A DNA stretch of 34,957 nt from Spirochaetaceae bacterium (GTDB taxonomy: Bacteria; Spirochaetota; Spirochaetia; Treponematales; Breznakiellaceae). Position 1 is the stretch's first letter, and every line of letters starts with the position of its first letter. The notes beneath the pieces are model-generated. The model ran no database searches, had not been told where the DNA came from, and saw only the letters and a program-made list of their open reading frames with translations. A program made the translations under genes and the position numbers. Where the stretch lies: NCBI GenBank assembly GCA_031279285.1, contig JAITIR010000119.1, positions 1-34,957 on the forward strand, given 5' to 3'. Below, in pieces: positions 20,962-29,619 of this stretch.

Positions 20962-21894
20962 TTACAACAGAGATTTTGCCCGTTTTGCCAAGGTTTCCGC
21001 GTCCAGGCCGAAGCGTTTTACCAGATAGTCCTGCGTGCCCACCTCGCCGAACTCATCGTTCACGCCGATACGTGTAAACCTGCCTTTAAAGCCGTTTTCG
21101 GCAAGAATTTCCGCGACGGCGCTGCCCAAAGCCCCTGAAATCTGGTGGTTTTCCGCACTTAGCACGGCCTTCACCTTCGAGGCCTCGTTCAGAATAGCCT
21201 CGCTGTCGATAGGTTTCAGGCTGAGTACGTCCAGTACGCCCGCGTCAACGCCGTCTGCCGCAAGAAGTTCCCGCGCCTTGAGCGCTTCATTTACCATCAG
21301 GCTTCCCAGCGCGACAAAGCAGACATCCTTGCCGGACTTGAGAACCTTGGCGCGGCCTATGCTGAATTTCTCACCCTGCTGGTACAAAACAGGCACCGGC
21401 TTTCGTGGAAAGCGGAGGTACACGGAGCCGTAAATCTCCGCGGCCTCCCTTATCAGCGCGCCGGCGCTGATCGCGTCGGAGGGTTCCAGGATCGTTAGGT
21501 GGGGGATCGCACGCATCAGCGCAAGGTCTTCAAACGGCATGTGGGTGCCGCCGTTAAACGCGGCTGTAACGCCGGGGTCGGTGCCGACCAGTTTTACGTT
21601 AAGCTTCGCGTAGTTGGCGGATATAAAGAACTGATCGTACACCCGCCGTGAGGCAAAACAGCCAAAAGTCGCGGCAAACGGTATCTTGCCCGCCGCGGAA
21701 AGTCCGGCCGCGACACAGACCATGTTGGCCTCCGCTATACCTACGTTAAAAAAGCGTTCTGGGTACGCCTTTTTGAAAAGGCCTGTGTTCGTACAGGACA
21801 TGAGGTCCGCTTCCAGCACGACAATATTCGGGTTCTTTGCCCCCAACTCAAGCAGGGTATTCACATAAGTTTCGCGTATCTCTTTTGTTTCCAT
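20962..21894 (-). CDS. Transketolase, C-terminal (pyrimidine-binding) subunit
   Basis: 310-aa split-transketolase second subunit, immediately downstream of the N-terminal subunit gene. Confidence 0.9.
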   Translation of the reverse strand: METKEIRETYVNTLLELGAKNPNIVVLEADLMSCTNTGLFKKAYPERFFNVGIAEANMVCVAAGLSAAGKIPFAATFGCFASRRVYDQFFISANYAKLNVKLVGTDPGVTAAFNGGTHMPFEDLALMRAIPHLTILEPSDAISAGALIREAAEIYGSVYLRFPRKPVPVLYQQGEKFSIGRAKVLKSGKDVCFVALGSLMVNEALKARELLAADGVDAGVLDVLSLKPIDSEAILNEASKVKAVLSAENHQISGALGSAVAEILAENGFKGRFTRIGVNDEFGEVGTQDYLVKRFGLDAETLAKRAKSLL

Positions 21895-21897
21895 CGT

Positions 21898-22725
21898 TTA
21901 CTCCTCCGCCTCAAGCGCGACAATTGCTTCTTTAGCCTTTTCAAGGTTAAAAGCCATGCTGTGGTTCTTTTCAATTCCCTCGGCAAAACAGCAGCCCTTT
22001 CCCTTGATCGTGTCCATCACAATCATTGAGGGTCGTTCTGCCTGCGTCTGCGCCTTTTCGATCGCGTTATCAAGCGCGGCAATATCGTGGCCGTCCACCC
22101 GCTGCGTAAACCAGCCGAATTCCCGCCACTTTGCGTCCAACTCACCCAGGTCAATGATGTCTTTGGTATAACCGTCAAGCTGCTGTTTGTTGTAGTCCGT
22201 AAACGCGATAAGGTTGGAAAGCTTTTGCGACGCCGCAAACATTGCGCCTTCCCAAACCTGCCCCTCATTCGACTCGCCGTCGCCAATAATCGTGTACACA
22301 TGCGCGTTAATTTTGTCGATGCGGAGCGCTAGAGCGATGCCCATCGCGGCGGAAAACCCCTGTCCCAGAGAGCCGGCCGTCATATCAACGCCGGGGGTAA
22401 GGTTCCGGTCGCAGTGGCTAGGCAGCCTTGTGCCGCCCTGATTCAGCGTCGCAAGCCATTCCACCGGGAAAAACCCCCTGAGCGCCAGCGTCGCGTACAG
22501 GGCAGGCCCCGCGTGTCCCTTTGAAACCACAAGCTGATCCCTGTCTTTCATCCTGGGCTGGGCCGGATCTATATTCATCCGGTGAAAGTACAGCAGCGCC
22601 AATATGTCCACTATTGACATGGAGCCGCCAATATGCCCCGTTCCCAGCGTACCTATCTCTTCTATCGTAAGTTTCCGTATCTCTTTGGCCCTGGATTTAA
22701 GGTAATCCAGTCGTTCTTTATCCAT
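21898..22725 (-). CDS. Transketolase, N-terminal (TPP-binding) subunit
   Basis: GHIGGSMSIVDIL...GDGESNEGQVWEA TPP-binding motifs. 275 aa. Confidence 0.9.
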   Translation of the reverse strand: MDKERLDYLKSRAKEIRKLTIEEIGTLGTGHIGGSMSIVDILALLYFHRMNIDPAQPRMKDRDQLVVSKGHAGPALYATLALRGFFPVEWLATLNQGGTRLPSHCDRNLTPGVDMTAGSLGQGFSAAMGIALALRIDKINAHVYTIIGDGESNEGQVWEGAMFAASQKLSNLIAFTDYNKQQLDGYTKDIIDLGELDAKWREFGWFTQRVDGHDIAALDNAIEKAQTQAERPSMIVMDTIKGKGCCFAEGIEKNHSMAFNLEKAKEAIVALEAEE

Positions 22726-22820: not shown

Positions 22821-23793
22821 TTGCGCTGCCCCGCGGTATGCTCTCCGTTTCCCCAACTATACCACAGCCGGAAAATTCCAGTAAGCGGTTCAAACCTGCA
22901 ACCTGAGCTGACCGTAACGGCTCTCGATACCGTTACAGCGATAGGGTACTATCTTTCCTCTAATAGGGCTAATTTCAGTATGGTTTATAATGTTGTCATA
23001 AAAACCATTGTTGATTCAATAATAATGTTTATGCTGTTTGTCATGCTGTTACCCGTTGAAATTAAATTCAAGAACAAATCTTTTTATGTTAATGCCGGGA
23101 AGAAATATCAACAGACAGCGGCAGCGGTTTTTTTTGTATCAGGAATATGCTTTTTTACAGTGACTATGGGGTTTCCTTCCTACTTGTATTCCCTGCGGAA
23201 AGAGCCGTCGACATTTTATGAAGAGAACTACATCGATCCTAATGATGTTGAAATAGCATTTCCCGAAAAAAGAGAAACCTGATAGTGATACTCATCGAAT
23301 CGCTGGAAACCGGCTTTTTAACGCTGGAAGACGGCGGTGCGTTCTCCGAAGACTTGATACAATAGCCGTAAGAATGTTTGCTTCTCAGTATAAAAATGTT
23401 TTGTTTGACATGGACAGGCAGTTGAGCAATTTTTTGGAATGGCTTGAAGGGCAGGAATTCTACGAAAATACAACCGTGGTTATTCTGGGAGATCACTTGT
23501 ATATGGACTCACATAAATATATTTATCAACTCCATGTTAACGGGAAAAAATACCAAAACAGGATTTTTTCGCATTTTGATATTTTCCCCGCGCTGATAGA
23601 TTCAATCGGAGGCGTTTACGATGCAAAAGGGCTGGCACTCGGACGTTCAATGAATAAAGGTGAGCATACCCTGCTCGAAGAATTTGGCGTTGACCATGTA
23701 AACAACGCCCTACAGCGCTGTTTGTGGCGGGGAAGTTCATCAATTACAATGAACTCCCTTCGCAGCCGTTGTAGGACAAAGATTTATGATTGA
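22821..23793 (+). pseudogene. LtaS/sulfatase (alkaline-phosphatase superfamily) gene remnant, low GC, frameshifted and internally deleted
   Basis: ORF 22821..23282 encodes TM helices plus an FYEENYIDPNDVEIAFPEKR linker, LtaS-like. Between 23283 and 23373 a different frame reads IVILIESLETGF (catalytic-region-like) and then stops. ORF 23374..23793 encodes the C-terminal sulfatase part (TTVVILGDHLYMDS...IFPALIDSIGG). Total about 970 bp versus about 1.9 kb for an intact LtaS. AT-rich relative to its flanks. Confidence 0.55.
23713..23745 (+). repeat. Copy D (partial) of the repeat family, between the LtaS remnant and tRNA-Lys
   Basis: acagcgctgtttgtggcggggaagttcat matches the core ctgttttgtggcggggcggttcat. 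Followed by the local inverted repeat agttcat/atgaact. Confidence 0.6.
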
Positions 23794-23863
23794 GCCGCCC
23801 GGAGATCGAATCCAGGACCCACGCCTTAAAAGGGCGTTGCTCTACCGACTGAGCTAGCGGCCC
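23791..23863 (-). tRNA. tRNA-Lys (anticodon UUU)
   Basis: The 73-nt cloverleaf folds by hand: acceptor stem GGGCCGC/GCGGCUC (one G-U pair), D-arm GCUC-AGUCGGUA-GAGC, anticodon stem ACGCC/GGCGU with loop CUUUUAA, T-arm CUGGA-UUCGAUC-UCCGG, discriminator A. No encoded CCA. Confidence 0.9.
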
Positions 23864-24189: not shown

Positions 24190-24753
24190 TTACATTGAAG
24201 CGGCGTTTTTGTATCCGGAAAACTCCCCGGTGGACGGCACGAAACGGCTCAAAGAGACGATATCCGCGCTACTATGGGCACGGCTTAGCTCCTCGCCGTC
24301 CTTGTCAAGGAGTATGGCGGTCGGGGTTGACATGACATTTCTGCGCATCGCCTCCGCAAGACCATCCTCATTCGCCGTGTCGATCGTGTCAAAAGGTATA
24401 CCAAGCCTCCCGGCAGCGGCTTTTGCGCTTGGACAAGCCGGACATCCGGGGCGCACGAACAGCAGAACATGCGGTTCTGACGAGTTAAACGGTTCGACTT
24501 TTTCTAGGACAGCGGCGGACACGGCGGCCGCGTTTGCGACGTGGGGCGTAACGCCTTCAGTATGCGCCGTAGAAGTTTCTATGTCGTAGAGGCGGCGTTC
24601 ACCGTACTCTTCGCGTTTGCCCTTGTTCCAATTACGGACTGACCGGTAGTAGCCCACGATCCTGCTATAAACCTCGGCAGGCGCGCCTTTCACGCTGGAA
24701 AGCGCCCCCCTAACCTGCTCCAAATCCTTCTCAATTTCCTCAAGTTTTCTCAT
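24190..24753 (-). CDS. NrdD glycyl-radical C-terminal domain fused to a glutaredoxin/NrdH-like CPAC redoxin domain, encoded separately from nrdD
   Basis: SRIVGYYRSVRNWNKGKREEYGERR matches the class III RNR glycyl-radical motif (R[VI]xGY...WNxGKxEE...R). The C-terminus LLFVRPGCPACP...STPTAILLDKDGEE is thioredoxin-fold. AGGAG lies 7 nt upstream of ATG 24753. Confidence 0.7.
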   Translation of the reverse strand: MRKLEEIEKDLEQVRGALSSVKGAPAEVYSRIVGYYRSVRNWNKGKREEYGERRLYDIETSTAHTEGVTPHVANAAAVSAAVLEKVEPFNSSEPHVLLFVRPGCPACPSAKAAAGRLGIPFDTIDTANEDGLAEAMRRNVMSTPTAILLDKDGEELSRAHSSADIVSLSRFVPSTGEFSGYKNAASM

Positions 24754-24843
24754 AAAGTTCTCCTAAATTAAATATGCGGCAATCTGCCGTATTATATAAA
24801 TATGCGGCTGCCTACCTCCACTGAACACGGCCCCCACCCCCTT

Positions 24844-26982
24844 TCAGCCGACCTTCAGTACCATTTCACGCTCCGCTTCCAACTCCGCGATACGGCTGCG
24901 CAGTTCATCTTCGCGCTCTTTTTTACATTTGGGGCAGGTAAAATGTTCACCCTTTAGATAGCCATGCACGGCACAAACCGAAAATGTCGGCGAGATTGTA
25001 AAGTATGGAATTCTGTAGTTGTGAGCCACCGCTTTTACCAAATCCCGGCAGGCGCGCCAGTCATCTATAGCCTCGCCCAAGAAAGCATGAAAGACCGTAC
25101 CTCCCGTGTAGGCGTTCTGTAGCTTCTCCTGTAGATCGAGGGCGTCGAAAATGTCATCGGTTTGCATCACGGGCAACTGCGTAGAGTTTGTGTAGTAAGG
25201 CTCATTTTCGCCGGCCGTGATGATATCCGGGTAGTGCGACTTGTCGTGTCTGGCAAGCCGGTACGAGGTAGACTCGGCGGGCGTTGCCTCAAGGTTGAAA
25301 AGATCGCCTGTTTCCTCCTGAAAGTCGGCAAGTTTGTTACGCATGAATTCAAGAACCTTAAGCGCGAAGGCGCGCCCATTATCCGTAGCGATGGTAACAT
25401 CCCGTCCCAGAAAATTCAGCAGGCACTCGTTCATACCGACAAGCCCTATCGTGTTAAAATGGTTGTTCAGTGTGCCAAGATAGCGCTTTGTGTACGGAAA
25501 AAGCCCCGATTCCAGCAGTTTATTGACCACCTTTCGCTTTATAACAAGCGATTCTTTGGCAAGTTCCATCAAAACGAGCAGTCTGTCGAAAAATTCACCC
25601 TCGGTTTTTGAAAGATAGCCGATGCGGGGCAGGTTGATCGTAACCACGCCTATTGAACCGGTAAGCTCATCTGAACCAAACAGGCCGCCGCCGCGCTTAC
25701 GCAGCTCGCGTTTGTCAAGCTGAAGGCGGCAGCACATAGAACGGACATCACCTGGATTCAGGTCCGAATTGACAAAATTCTGGAAGTAAGGCGTGCCGTA
25801 ACGCGAAGTCATCTCGAACAACAGGTGCGTATTCTCACTGTCCCAGTCAAAGTCCGCCGTGATATTGTACGTGGGGATCGGGTACTGAAACCCGCGCCCA
25901 TCCGCGTCGCCATCCAACATCAACTCAATGAAAAGCCTGTTGACCCTGTCCATTTCCGGCTTGCAATCGCCGTAGGTAAAATCCATCTCTTTACCACCCA
26001 CGACAGCCTTGCTATCGCGAAGATCGCCCGGCACAGTCCAGTCCAGCGTGATGTTGGTAAACGGCGCCTGGCTGCCCCAGCGGCTTGGCGTGTTTACGCC
26101 GAAAACAAAACTCTGAAGGCACTGCTTGACTTCTTTGTCGCTCATACCGTCAGCCTTGACGAACGGGGCTATGAAGGTGTCGAAGGAACTGAACGCCTGG
26201 GCGCCGGCCCATTCATTCTGTAGGCAGCCCAGAAAATTCACTGCCTGTTGCATCAACGTAGAAAGGTGCTTTGCCGGTTTGCTCGTTATCTTGTCCGGCA
26301 CGCCGCCCAAACCCTCTTTTATAAGCTGCCTCAAGGACCATCCGGCGCAGTAACCGGAAAACATCGACAGATCGTGCAGGTGAAAGTCCGCATTCCGGTG
26401 AGCGTCCGCGATTTCAGACGTATAGATGTTTTTAAGCCAGTAGTTCGCTGTAATACTGCCGGAATTGTGCAGTATAAGGCCGCCAAGCGAGTAGTTGACG
26501 TTAGCGTTCTCGTTGACTCGCCAGTCAGACTGCTTCAAGTAGCCGTCCATCGTCTCATCAATGTTGAGCATCAGTTTTTTTACGTCCCGCATCGCGTCAT
26601 GTTTGGCGCGGTAGAGGATGTAGGCCTTGGCAACGGCCGTTTCTCTGAACTCGATCAGCGCGTTTTCAACCAAATCCTGTATCTCTTCGATCGCGGGTAT
26701 AGATTTTTCATGCCTGGAAGACATCATATCCTCGATCAGCTCTTCGACACGGCTCGTGACAGCCTCGATTTTTTTATCGTCTGCCCCGCAGCCGCCCCTC
26801 ATGGAGGCCGTACCCTCACGGCCACCATGGACAGAGCCCGCACCTACAGTCCCAAGCTGTTCCGCATAAGCACTTCGGTTGCCTCCGGCAACAGCTATGA
26901 ACGCTTTGGAAATAGCGTTTTTAATTTTCGACCGGTCGTAAGGTTTTACCTCACCAGACCTCTTAACCACGTTTTTTATCAC
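24844..26982 (-). CDS. nrdD: Anaerobic ribonucleoside-triphosphate reductase catalytic subunit (class III); ends after the Zn ribbon, with no glycyl-radical motif
   Basis: ATP-cone (VIKNVVKRSGEVKPYDRSKIKNAISKAF), NrdD core (NLEATPAESTSYRLA...YYTNSTQ), and a C-terminal Zn ribbon CxxH...CPKC. Probable GTG start at 26982 (GGAGAG-4 nt-GTG), overlapping the nrdR end. The ORF-track ATG at 27033 would overlap nrdR by 71 nt. Confidence 0.9.
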   Translation of the reverse strand: MIKNVVKRSGEVKPYDRSKIKNAISKAFIAVAGGNRSAYAEQLGTVGAGSVHGGREGTASMRGGCGADDKKIEAVTSRVEELIEDMMSSRHEKSIPAIEEIQDLVENALIEFRETAVAKAYILYRAKHDAMRDVKKLMLNIDETMDGYLKQSDWRVNENANVNYSLGGLILHNSGSITANYWLKNIYTSEIADAHRNADFHLHDLSMFSGYCAGWSLRQLIKEGLGGVPDKITSKPAKHLSTLMQQAVNFLGCLQNEWAGAQAFSSFDTFIAPFVKADGMSDKEVKQCLQSFVFGVNTPSRWGSQAPFTNITLDWTVPGDLRDSKAVVGGKEMDFTYGDCKPEMDRVNRLFIELMLDGDADGRGFQYPIPTYNITADFDWDSENTHLLFEMTSRYGTPYFQNFVNSDLNPGDVRSMCCRLQLDKRELRKRGGGLFGSDELTGSIGVVTINLPRIGYLSKTEGEFFDRLLVLMELAKESLVIKRKVVNKLLESGLFPYTKRYLGTLNNHFNTIGLVGMNECLLNFLGRDVTIATDNGRAFALKVLEFMRNKLADFQEETGDLFNLEATPAESTSYRLARHDKSHYPDIITAGENEPYYTNSTQLPVMQTDDIFDALDLQEKLQNAYTGGTVFHAFLGEAIDDWRACRDLVKAVAHNYRIPYFTISPTFSVCAVHGYLKGEHFTCPKCKKEREDELRSRIAELEAEREMVLKVG

Positions 26983-27439
26983 TTTTCTCTCCCAATTTTT
27001 TGATCTCCTGGATAAATTCGTCAAGATCTTCAAAATGGCGGCATACGGACGCGAATCTTATGTAAGCCACCTTATCGAGCTGCCCCAATTTTTCCAGCAC
27101 CATCTCGCCTATGATATTTGTAGCCACCTCACGGTCCAAACCGGCGGAAATGACGGCCTGATCCTCAATTTCGTTTACAAGCCGTTCAACGTCCATCCGC
27201 GACACAGGCCGCTTCTGGATAGCCCGTTCCAAACCCACCTCGATCTTATTACGGTCGAATGGCTCGCGCCTGCCGTCCCGTTTTATCACCATAAACGGTT
27301 TTTCTTCTATCCGTTCATAGCTCGTAAACCGGTAGCCGCAGACCGTGCACTCCCTGCGGCGCCTGACGGCATCACCGTTGGCAAGGGTTCTGGATTCAAG
27401 GACTTTATCATCGACGTTACCGCAATGAGGACAACGCAA
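26963..27439 (-). CDS. nrdR: Transcriptional repressor NrdR
   Basis: MRCPHCG...CTVCGYRFTSYE zinc ribbon plus an ATP-cone. 158 aa. Directly upstream of nrdD. Confidence 0.9.
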   Translation of the reverse strand: MRCPHCGNVDDKVLESRTLANGDAVRRRRECTVCGYRFTSYERIEEKPFMVIKRDGRREPFDRNKIEVGLERAIQKRPVSRMDVERLVNEIEDQAVISAGLDREVATNIIGEMVLEKLGQLDKVAYIRFASVCRHFEDLDEFIQEIKKLGEKSDKKRG

Positions 27440-28020: not shown

Positions 28021-29619
28021 TTGAAGACAGAATACAGCGCCGCCGCGATACTTTTTGCCGGAGAACTACATGACGAGGCGTTTAAAAAGTGTTTTGGCGG
28101 CAAAAGCGCCTTTGAGTTGGCGTTAAAACGGGCGGCTGCGTTTCCTCACGTTGTAAAAATAACTGTACTCGTGTCAAGCGATTTTGATACTACGCTGATG
28201 CCATGCGGCATTGAACGCATGGAATTTGTGCAAAAAGAGGCGTGGAACGTCAAAACTTTTTTGTATGAGCTTGCCCGCGCCGGCGAGGGTTTTGACCTGA
28301 GTTATTTTTGCTGGGCAGACACCCCTTTCCTTGACGGCGGCCTTGCGGAGGCCATTGCCGGGCGGCATCTGCGTGGCGCTGCGGAGTATTCCTATGCAGA
28401 CGGCTGGCCGGACGGTCTCGCGCCTGAAATTCTATCTCCCGGGACGGCGGGGATTCTTGCCCGGATAAACGGCGAAAACGAGGCGCCGGTGGAACGGGAC
28501 ACGATTTTCGCCGTTTTGCAGAAGGACATTAACACGTTTGACATCGAAACCGAGATTTCGGCAGTTGACTTGAGGCAACACCGGCTGAACCTCGCGGCCT
28601 GCTCGAAACGCAACCTGTTGCTACTTGAGCGTTTTTGGGAGGCGGGCGTAGCCGGCGCTATGAGCATGGCTGACACCGCCGGACAACTCATCATCAAGCA
28701 GCCCGAACTGCTCCGCAGCCTGCCGGCATTCTACCCGATTCAGGTTGTATCCGCCTGTCCCCAGCGCTGTCCTGTCTGCCCCTATCCAAAGTCGGATCAC
28801 TTTGCTTTCTTTGACCCCTTTCATAGGGAGGAGGGGCCTGTAGAAGATGATTTTTCGATCATGAAGCTTGAGGATTTTTCAACTTTACTCGATAGAATCG
28901 TGGATTTTTCAGGCGACGCCGTGGTAGACCTGTCGTTATGGGGAGAAATCGCGCTCCACCCGCAAAGAATTGAGCTTGTAAGGGAGGTTTTACGGCGTCC
29001 GGACCTGTCTCTTGTGATAGAAACTTCCGGGATTGGCTGGGAAATAACGGATTTTCAAACGCTTGCCGGTGAAGCGGCAACGGCCGTGCCGCGAAAGAGC
29101 GGCATGGCAGCGCTTTCGTGGATAGTTTCACTCGATTCGAACGATGAGGCGGAATACCGCGCCGTACGTGGTGACGGTTTTGGCGCGGCGCTTGAAAACG
29201 CCCACACCATCGTTTCGCTTTTTCCGAAAGACGCCTACGTACAGGCCCTGCGGATGAAGGGGAACGAGGCGTACATAGAAAAGTTTTACCGGTTTTGGAA
29301 GGGCGAGGGGGCCAACGTGATAATCCAGAAGTACGATTCGTTTTGTGGCTCCTTGCCGGACCGTTCCGCCGCCGACCTTTCTCCGATAAAACGCTATCCC
29401 TGCTGGCACCTGATGCGCGATATGCCGATCCTGCTGGACGGAAGCGTCCCCGTCTGCCGTTCGGCCCTGCCGGGCATAACCGCCGTGCTTGGCAACGCGT
29501 TTGGAGAGGGCCTGGACGCAATTTGGCAGCGCGGGGAGGAACGCTACGAGCGACACTGCGCTCAAAACTACGATGGCCCTTGCTCAAAGTGTGATGAATA
29601 CTATACCTTCAACTTTTAA
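28021..29619 (+). CDS. Fusion protein: N-terminal cytidylyltransferase-like nucleotidyltransferase domain (SpsF/NeuA/IspD-type), then a radical-SAM domain (CX3CX2C), then a C-terminal SPASM/twitch-like Cys cluster
   Basis: TTG start at 28021, with GGAGG 5 nt upstream (the in-frame-shifted ATG at 28016 hits TGA after 2 codons). Residues 1-200: AAAILFAGE...FCWADTPFLDGGL...YADGWPDGLAPEIL, nucleotidyltransferase-like. C246-x3-C250-x2-C253 (ACPQRCPVCPY). C-terminus: C-x14-G-x4-C ... C-x7-C-x2-C. Confidence 0.7.
   Translation: MKTEYSAAAILFAGELHDEAFKKCFGGKSAFELALKRAAAFPHVVKITVLVSSDFDTTLMPCGIERMEFVQKEAWNVKTFLYELARAGEGFDLSYFCWADTPFLDGGLAEAIAGRHLRGAAEYSYADGWPDGLAPEILSPGTAGILARINGENEAPVERDTIFAVLQKDINTFDIETEISAVDLRQHRLNLAACSKRNLLLLERFWEAGVAGAMSMADTAGQLIIKQPELLRSLPAFYPIQVVSACPQRCPVCPYPKSDHFAFFDPFHREEGPVEDDFSIMKLEDFSTLLDRIVDFSGDAVVDLSLWGEIALHPQRIELVREVLRRPDLSLVIETSGIGWEITDFQTLAGEAATAVPRKSGMAALSWIVSLDSNDEAEYRAVRGDGFGAALENAHTIVSLFPKDAYVQALRMKGNEAYIEKFYRFWKGEGANVIIQKYDSFCGSLPDRSAADLSPIKRYPCWHLMRDMPILLDGSVPVCRSALPGITAVLGNAFGEGLDAIWQRGEERYERHCAQNYDGPCSKCDEYYTFNF

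Follow-up and report, generated by a model that had tools for sequence, protein, structure and literature searches.

The window examined here, a 34,957-bp stretch of DNA from a Spirochaetaceae bacterium (contig JAITIR010000119.1 of assembly GCA_031279285.1, analysed at its full length), carries on its minus strand a compact cluster for a class III (anaerobic) ribonucleotide reductase (RNR), in the order nrdR, nrdD and a small open reading frame (ORF) that we refer to as ORF2 (Table 1). The first gene of the cluster, nrdR, codes for a repressor of RNR gene transcription; it overlaps the start of nrdD, which encodes the catalytic subunit. Read from a TTG codon, nrdD specifies a protein of 729 amino acids; the public annotation (P0121) starts at a GTG at position 26982 and gives 712 residues, and this GTG is likely to be the true start. 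The original prediction for this locus, made from the letters of the sequence, held that NrdD ends past its Zn ribbon without a glycyl-radical motif, and that this motif lies on the next ORF together with a thioredoxin-fold domain bearing a CPAC active site; the family models described below agree on all three points.

NrdD and ORF2 share the domains of a class III RNR

NrdD matches the NRDD family (PF13597) with 585.7 bits (cut-off 26.2) over model positions 1-539 of 562, the NCBIfam model NF006126 with 1075 bits (cut-off 548) over positions 2-659 of 684, and TIGR02487 with 487 bits (cut-off 326), its best solved relative being the T. maritima NrdD (4COI, E=2.6e-39). ORF2 aligns only with the last 30 positions of NRDD (533-562 of 562), with positions 649-683 of the 684 in NF006126 and with positions 592-623 of the 624 in NF006358, and the matches of the two chains complement each other on the single models NRDD and NF006126. 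In the alignment to T. maritima, the beta-A cysteine of NrdD (Cys229) falls in the segment of Cys125, which has been assigned a role as an active-site cysteine (PMC4493059), and the finger loop is of the MCCR type, within the MGCR and MCCR/SCCR motif classes recognised among class III RNRs (PMC9669993). The C-terminal Zn ribbon is kept in split and contiguous relatives alike (in the numbering of the fused chain, C670, C683 and C686 are invariant in the alignment and H673 is present in at least 90% of the sequences). NrdD closes with this ribbon (CAVH...CPKC) and a 26-residue tail, KKEREDELRSRIAELEAEREMVLKVG, where the chain stops; the glycyl-radical motif (RVxGY) is absent from NrdD itself. 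As a separate observation, the NrdD cores of three related loci (L010, L014 and L024) reach approximately 1014 residues owing to an insertion of about 323 residues inside the MCCR finger loop (...DVRSMC/PLLGTT...LITHN/CRLQL..., with slashes at its borders), which has intein-like ends (HN followed by Cys) and in which Pfam finds no domain.

ORF2 begins with an amphipathic helix that leads into the glycyl-radical domain, the presumed radical glycine, Gly34, being encoded at 24652-24654. A variable linker then connects to a redoxin domain that matches Glutaredoxin (PF00462) with 29.4 bits (cut-off 22.9) and whose nearest solved relatives are the glutaredoxins 2MZC and 2KHP (E=4e-5), the NrdH structure 1R7H being a weak match (E=0.0035). 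The hallmarks of NrdH, which we take to be a CVQC active site and a WSGFRP motif, serve as a reference here: ORF2 has CPAC and no WSGFRP, and no NrdH model is found among its NCBIfam matches. The radical segment matches NRDD only; against Gly_radical (PF01228), ORF2 had no match up to E<=10. No Pfam or NCBIfam model covers the small protein over its full length, and its public names are inconsistent (hypothetical protein, glutaredoxin family protein, ribonucleoside-triphosphate reductase).

Conservation within the small protein follows these domains. Among 24 homologues, 27 columns are invariant between G23 and R53, as are C104, P105, C107, P108, T143, P144 and T145 of the redoxin. When the small gene of the window was compared with those of its six closest relatives, the ratio of nonsynonymous to synonymous substitution rates (dN/dS) was 0.09-0.29 for the whole gene, 0.07-0.16 for the helix and radical domain (residues 1-58), 0.10-0.29 for the glutaredoxin domain and 0.25-1.1 for the linker; the small gene is under purifying selection. 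At the very C-terminus, encoded at 24193-24213 on the minus strand, the clade of the window has a conserved tail of the form Y-K-x-A-A-S-M, which reads QEAASM in the group of Treponema sp. TIM-1.

Table 1 Features of the RNR locus in the window.
Feature	Position	Strand	Basis or detail
nrdR	26963..27439	-	TIGR00244, 184 bits against a cut-off of 124.65; Zn_ribbon_NrdR and ATP-cone
nrdD core, class III RNR catalytic subunit	24844..27033	-	PF13597, NF006126, TIGR02487
ATP-cone (allosteric nucleotide-binding), NrdD residues 83-146	26596..26787	-	PF03477, 71.5 bits for the whole protein
SGYCAGW, NrdD residues 226-232, with beta-A cysteine Cys229	26338..26358	-	Aligned to the T. maritima Cys125 segment
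SMCCRL, NrdD residues 432-437, double-cysteine finger loop, MCCR type	25723..25740	-	Aligned to the T. maritima SCCR motif
C-terminal Zn ribbon, C687-x2-H690...C700-x2-C703	24925..24975	-	Aligned to the 4COI ribbon
NrdD tail helix KKEREDELRSRIAELEAEREMVLKVG, heptad-like hydrophobics L8, I12, L15, V22/L23	24847..24924	-	Conservation in 73 loci
Intergenic spacer, 90 nt	24754..24843	-	
Small subunit gene (ORF2), 187 aa	24190..24753	-	N-helix, glycyl-radical domain, linker, glutaredoxin-like domain
N-terminal amphipathic helix MRKLEEIEKDLEQVRGALSSVKG (L4, I7, L11, A/V14, L18, V21)	24685..24753	-	Conservation; split form only
Glycyl-radical domain APAEVYSRIVG34YYRSVRNWNKGKREEYGERRLY	24586..24684	-	PF13597, NF006358
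Variable low-complexity linker, ORF2 residues 57-94	24472..24585	-	Length and sequence vary; pLDDT <50
Glutaredoxin/thioredoxin-fold domain, C104-P-A-C107 (24433-24444), cis-Pro T143-P144-T145 (STPTA, 24316-24330)	24241..24471	-	

The split is conserved among spirochaetes

A collection of 5.8 billion proteins contains 1,546 relatives of the small protein, the best 120 of which are all 154-233 aa long and come from Spirochaetaceae/Treponema, mostly from metagenome-assembled genomes (MAGs) of termite guts; the window belongs to one such MAG, and its small protein is represented there by P0001 at 100% identity. A profile search that read all 1.84 billion cluster representatives (clustered at 50% identity) returned 3,631 matches, of which 510 reach E<=1e-10 and 117 reach E<=1e-30; every one of the best 150 of the 3,631 measures 75-320 aa, and the small proteins form at least 150 clusters. 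The family is large and old. Relatives are encoded in 385 species-representative genomes, and in the best 80 of these we compared the orthologous loci: a separate small ORF starting M-R-x-L-E is present in 80 of 80, and a truncated nrdD lies shortly upstream of it at 76 loci, the window included. The two-gene form also occurs in isolates, some of them with closed genomes, such as Treponema sp. TIM-1 and Breznakiella homolactica RmG30, the genome of the latter being complete; Leadbettera azotonutricia and Treponema sp. J25 have NrdD cores that end in the same tail, and a divergent split member occurs in the marine spirochaete Rarispira pelagica. Between lineages, the NrdD core is 75-93% identical.

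Extra copies were seen at two loci. L019 has an additional ORF of 96 aa (L019:3059-3346), consisting of a radical domain only, between nrdD and the usual gene for radical domain and glutaredoxin, and L040 has a second copy of the small gene (L040:4368-4844; 159 aa as an open frame, 154 aa as called, P0262) in which one active-site cysteine is lost. These copies may be spares, decaying duplicates or artefacts of MAG assembly.

The spacer between the two genes of the window had attracted attention in the original prediction, and every element listed there is indeed in the sequence. The two ORFs share a reading frame that is interrupted by two in-frame stops, the TGA that ends nrdD (24844-24846) and a TAG; an AGGAG stands 7 nt ahead of the ATG of ORF2; and the 12-nt sequence GCCGCATATTTA occurs twice (24769-24780 and 24797-24808). 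With one mismatch allowed, this sequence has three matches in the whole window, a number that none of 100 shuffles reached. Among the related loci it is found only in the closest one (L001), and there in a single copy, so that the repeat is best regarded as a local, incidental duplication. In a comparison of 76 related loci, spacer lengths run from -4 to 384 nt, and the three possible frame relations occur 29, 31 and 16 times. Because spacer length and frame vary freely in this way, the shared frame of the window is a coincidence, and the frame, the stops and the repeat carry no meaning. A motif resembling a ribosome-binding site (RBS) precedes the small gene in 73 of 78 loci. The TATAAT-like hexamer, also listed in the original prediction, is likewise without meaning. 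A promoter and terminator scan returned nothing beyond what shuffled sequences gave, the spacer holding just a weak 5-bp hairpin that is not conserved, and an Rfam scan found no RNA element in the spacer, its sole match being the tRNA downstream of ORF2.

These comparisons bear directly on two ways in which the split could be illusory. According to the first, which the original prediction had kept as its alternative, a contiguous nrdD was recently broken by a 90-nt insertion, or by sequencing or assembly errors, and what remains is a pseudogene. The window by itself could be read in this manner, with two ORFs in frame, 90 nt apart and a local 12-nt duplication in the spacer; however, the split recurs in all of the best 80 related species genomes, which are independent assemblies and include closed isolate genomes, the frame relation is random (29/31/16), the small gene is equipped with a conserved ATG and RBS of its own and shows a low dN/dS, and both helices that flank the break are conserved additions lacking in contiguous enzymes. 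The comparative data thus refute a disruption or assembly error, whose probability we put at practically nil. The second possibility is that programmed stop-codon readthrough or another recoding event yields one fused polypeptide of NrdD, radical domain and glutaredoxin. The pair is in frame in the window and in 29 of 76 loci, but this is the one third expected by chance, and in 47 loci the genes are out of frame, one pair overlapping by 4 nt. In addition, a ribosome would have two stops to cross in the window, Rfam finds no element in the spacer, and the conserved M-R-x-L-E start with its RBS points to independent initiation. The frame relation and the variable spacer exclude readthrough as a general mechanism, and we judge it extremely improbable overall. 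Almost certainly, the split is genuine and functional.

Contiguous relatives lack the helices that flank the break

The original prediction had traced the catalytic subunit and the separate radical/redoxin subunit to a contiguous ancestor, and contiguous relatives do exist alongside the split found throughout the best 80 genomes. One of them, P0351, is a one-piece NrdD that reads ...PYFTISPTFSVCPNHGYLAGEHFTCPHC-GADA-EVYSRIVGYYRSVRNWNRGK..., continues through a linker into a redoxin domain with a CPNCPP active site, and is followed by nrdG, the gene for the activase. A search with P0351 returned many one-piece proteins of Lachnospiraceae, Oscillospiraceae, Erysipelotrichaceae and other Clostridia, the majority as fragments, and contiguous proteins are also present in some metagenomes. 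Of the listed matches with a recognised contiguous junction, 95 of 101 have a CxxC domain behind the radical motif. The contiguous junction has the form CPxC-G-x-x-A-EVYSRI, with approximately five residues between the Zn ribbon and EVYSRI. One fusion of this kind, grx::nrdD, has been mentioned for Lachnospiraceae bacterium TWA4 (PMC6187632).

At the corresponding place in the split form, NrdD carries a tail of 24-33 residues (K-E-E-x-E-x-x-L-[RK]-x-R-I-A-x-L-E-x-E-R-x-x-[VA]-L) and the small protein an N-terminal helix of 23 residues (M-R-x-L-E-x-I-E-K-D-L-x-x-A-R-E-A-L-S-x-V-E-G). Both are strongly conserved across the split pairs, with hydrophobic residues at a spacing of 3-4, and both are absent in the contiguous relatives. 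We tentatively suggest that the two helices form a docking device between the chains, although we hold this at less than even probability. A more elaborate scheme would have the NrdD tail and the N-terminus of the small protein act as the halves of a split intein that ligates the chains by protein trans-splicing. The chains are translated as separate products that nonetheless have to act jointly, inteins are common in RNR genes, and three related NrdDs have the intein-like insertion in the finger loop. Against this, the segments span no more than about 26 and 23 residues and are helical, of a heptad type, with no Hint or intein match at E<=10; the end residues of NrdD vary (G, V, A, S and others), and the small protein starts with M-R and offers no Cys, Ser or Thr as a junction nucleophile. 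Trans-splicing therefore has a negligible probability.

Three further observations concern the origin of the junction. Two partial sequences from Treponema sp. (P0399 and P0402) are contiguous, with NrdD, radical domain and glutaredoxin in one chain, and have an insertion of 30-50 residues (AAEERRKMEQ...GTRTEVY) at the split site; they may be evolutionary intermediates or secondary re-fusions. The alignment program MAFFT repeatedly places the NrdD tail (ELRSRIAELE) over the start of the radical motif (EVYSRIVGYY) and over the N-helix (MRKLEEIEKDLE), and the matches to NF006126 overlap, that of NrdD running to position 659 and that of ORF2 starting from 649; this likeness of tail, N-helix and radical motif may stem from partial duplication around the point of fission, or merely from a similar helical composition. 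Finally, a rough neighbour-joining tree of the radical and redoxin region, computed without support values, interleaves some contiguous forms with split ones.

The activase gene and the surroundings of the cluster

The original prediction noted that no nrdG adjoins the cluster. This is correct for the window: a scan for the CX3CX2C motif over all 34,957 bp found no nrdG, because the sole such motif on the contig belongs to a spiro-SPASM protein of 532 aa. This radical S-adenosylmethionine (radical-SAM) protein, encoded at 28021-29619 on the plus strand, matches TIGR04321 with 558 bits and belongs to a family confined to spirochaetes. As a general trait, the absence of nrdG does not stand: in 35 of the 74 related loci with enough downstream sequence, nrdG directly follows the small gene, a gene with the cluster motif GCNLRCPWCHN beginning at or just past the stop codon of the latter. 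The downstream copy in Breznakiella is an NrdG2 (TIGR02495, 146 bits against a cut-off of 131). Four loci (L033 of Breznakiella homolactica RmG30, L083 of Rarispira pelagica, L085 and L086) have the full order nrdR, nrdD, small gene, nrdG, and the nrdD core measures 687-701 aa in the divergent lineages L083, L085 and L086. The sub-lineage of the window, which is marked by the YKxAASM tail, has lost the adjacency of nrdG; a tail of the YKxAASM type is never present at loci that have an adjacent nrdG.

In a few sequences the radical domain and redoxin are apparently fused to NrdG itself (P0380/P0391 on a contig of 2,076 bp, and P0320 at L082:6001-6768). We gave no weight to these triple fusions; P0320 sits in a long-read contig ridden with frameshifts and is probably an artefact.

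On the 3' side of the small gene, in the slot that nrdG occupies in relatives, the window has a tRNA (23791-23863, minus strand) and two ORFs on the plus strand (22821-23282 and 23374-23793). One of the ORFs has no Pfam match and the other is a 42-residue piece of Sulfatase (positions 204-245 of 301), so that the two resemble pieces of a single, disrupted gene of the sulfatase family and the spot looks rearranged. Further along, the transketolase of the window is encoded by two adjoining genes on the minus strand, with the N-terminal part that binds thiamine pyrophosphate at 21898-22725 and the pyrimidine-binding plus C-terminal part at 20962-21894, which is a known arrangement.

A probable two-subunit RNR with its radical supplied in trans

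Since the large subunit has the essentials of a class III enzyme except the radical, the radical loop must come from the small protein. We consider it likely that the pair is an obligate two-subunit class III RNR, and we attach a similar probability to the catalytic radical being supplied in trans by the small subunit. In the proposed mechanism, the large subunit would contribute the ATP-cone, a ten-stranded barrel, the MCCR finger loop, the beta-A cysteine and the Zn ribbon. An activase of the NrdG2 type would remove the hydrogen atom from Gly34 while the small protein is free or only loosely tethered, whereupon the radical loop would enter the barrel of the large subunit and generate a thiyl radical in the finger loop. 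In glycyl radical enzymes the buried loop must leave the barrel to meet the activase (PMC4493059, PMC13450708); with a free radical domain there would therefore be no need for a buried loop to exit. The redoxin, carried on a flexible linker of approximately 40 residues, would most likely re-reduce the disulfide between the beta-A and finger-loop cysteines after each turnover, by analogy with the class III RNR of N. bacilliformis, whose disulfide is re-reduced by thioredoxin (PMC9669993). The MCCR loop together with the beta-A cysteine fits thiol-based reduction, as judged from the motifs, and on balance we lean towards the redoxin being a dedicated reductant. The amphipathic helices that flank the fission point would probably hold the chains together or position them.

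Structure predictions were made with AlphaFold2 on fused chains, with a mean predicted local distance difference test (pLDDT) score of 70.6 and 61.5 in the two models and of 50-60 in the radical domain. The redoxin is modelled in both as beta-alpha-beta-alpha-beta-beta-alpha (fusion residues 807-883, pLDDT ~95), and the junction segments are predicted to be helical in both. In model 1, a direct fusion of NrdD and ORF2, the radical loop appears as a low-confidence helix and the junction helices are merged into one long helix; the underlying MAFFT alignment had set the radical motif of the homologues onto the NrdD tail helix, which left the loop uninformed. In trials with MAFFT, the small subunits were aligned correctly only with at most about five cores present. 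Model 2, in which a break separates the junction helices, has a predicted template modelling (pTM) score of 0.45 and a poor core that stems from a shallow core alignment.

Several points weigh against this two-subunit enzyme. That it would be active in trans is a conclusion drawn from the architecture alone. An analysis of covariation between the helices (mutual information with average product correction, 74 pairs) yielded neither a parallel nor an antiparallel register, and each helix carries a net negative charge (-1.6 and -2.1), which disfavours a simple heterodimeric zipper. The radical loop lies outside the barrel in both AlphaFold2 fused-chain models, which were built on flawed or shallow alignments. 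No nrdG is found on the 35-kb contig, nor within approximately 6 kb in the closest relatives. Lastly, enzymes of the MCCR type keep the methionine that is linked to formate chemistry (PMC9669993), and by this analogy the electron donor may be formate.

Some of the same observations would suit a different role, in which the small protein never inserts into NrdD and is instead a regulator, decoy substrate or chaperone of NrdG, or a redoxin that serves some unrelated target. The helix covariation is negative and the loop is undocked in the models. Such a role would nevertheless leave unexplained why more than 25 residues of the radical motif are invariant, exactly as in catalytic NrdDs, why the large subunit has lost exactly the radical segment and nothing more, and why contiguous relatives show the identical domain order within one chain. 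We find a regulatory or unrelated function quite improbable and retain the two-subunit enzyme as the preferred reading.

Relation to known systems

Reviews place the radical glycine of glycyl radical enzymes at the C-terminus of the large catalytic chain, with the spare parts of pyruvate formate-lyase (PFL) as the sole exceptions. These are GrcA/YfiD of E. coli and Y06I of phage T4, autonomous glycyl radical cofactors that repair PFL cleaved by oxygen; no spare-part proteins are known outside the formate-lyases, and whether other glycyl radical enzymes possess any has been posed as an open question (two papers, and reviews to June 2026). The original prediction had likened the small gene to GrcA, and functionally the analogy holds: both are small stand-alone glycyl-radical proteins that would be activated by the radical-SAM activase of the enzyme and, as proposed here for ORF2, supply the loop in trans. 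It fails as regards family membership and the role of a spare. The radical domain of ORF2 is of the NrdD type and has no Gly_radical match (PF01228, IPR011140), its partner is a class III RNR and not PFL, and ORF2 has a fused redoxin and an N-terminal helix where GrcA has a disordered N-terminus. Moreover, PFL has a radical domain of its own, whereas the NrdD described here lacks one at all loci examined, and because of this the small protein is obligate rather than spare.

The same facts speak to the proposal that the small protein is a facultative spare of the GrcA/YfiD type, a complete NrdD elsewhere doing the normal work while the pair serves for oxygen repair only or the truncated NrdD is inactive. 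Such proteins exist for PFL, and L019 does have an additional radical-domain-only ORF. Yet the adjacent nrdD is without a radical domain at every locus and would be useless without the small protein, the pair occupies the canonical position in the nrdR-nrdD-nrdG operon, and a core identity of 75-93% across lineages indicates strong constraint. We regard a facultative spare as quite improbable, and an obligate subunit remains our preferred interpretation.

Other RNRs resemble the split enzyme in part. The contiguous NrdD-glutaredoxin/thioredoxin proteins of Lachnospiraceae bacterium TWA4 and of Clostridia metagenomes share its domain order, the MCCR finger loop and the motif EVYSRI(V/T)GYYR, but are single polypeptides without the helices of approximately 25 residues at the junction. 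The NrdDs of N. bacilliformis and T. maritima likewise have a double-cysteine finger loop and a beta-A cysteine, and their reductant is likely to be a protein dithiol; they differ in being single chains that use free thioredoxin and have an SCCR motif without the methionine, whereas the present enzyme has MCCR and a redoxin tethered to its radical domain. A division of the catalytic chain is found in the class II enzyme NrdJa/NrdJb of Pseudomonas aeruginosa, of which NrdJb reportedly carries the C-terminal part. There, two adjacent genes provide the catalytic chain (Crona et al. 2015, as cited in PMC9669993). This is an analogy only, for the class II enzyme uses adenosylcobalamin and no glycyl radical, its break point and added elements are different, and it has no fused redoxin. 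A dedicated redoxin linked physically or genetically to an RNR is also seen in the Grx-ATP-cone-NrdB protein of Facklamia ignava and in NrdH, the redoxin fused to F. ignava NrdB having been shown experimentally to act as RNR reductant (PMC6187632). These systems belong to class I, however, with the redoxin either on the radical-generating ferritin-like subunit or free, and NrdH has CVQC where ORF2 has CPAC. A description of a class III RNR whose radical domain is encoded by a gene of its own was not found in the searchable literature (most subscription journals and RNRdb lie outside this scope), in keeping with the suggestion of the original prediction that the physical split was new. The two-subunit class III RNR, with its small subunit of radical domain and redoxin, is a real and conserved variant that has apparently gone undescribed.

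A natural and widespread class III RNR whose radical domain is always separate offers a system in which to study how an activase gains access to a glycine that is normally buried, and how a radical loop enters the barrel in trans. The linkage of radical domain and redoxin also bears on which class III RNRs use thiols and which use formate. As to what the split might be for, the selective advantage could lie, purely by conjecture, in the cheap replacement of a 20-kDa part after oxygen has cut the backbone at the radical glycine. Taking this further, the small protein may be a diffusible, replaceable radical cartridge that is activated by NrdG off the enzyme, plugs into the barrel, recycles the disulfide through its tethered glutaredoxin and is exchanged after cleavage by O2 at Gly34, in which case spirochaetes would have adapted in this way to the micro-oxic wall of the termite gut and to habitats like it; we offer this as a speculation that we doubt somewhat more than we believe. 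Loop exchange as a route to oxygen tolerance can be tested in the split RNR, and cultured hosts with genomes are available in Breznakiella homolactica, Leadbettera azotonutricia, Treponema sp. TIM-1 and Rarispira pelagica. If the cartridge proved true, this would be the first glycyl radical enzyme with an obligatorily separate radical cofactor and the first spare-part-like system beyond pyruvate formate-lyase.

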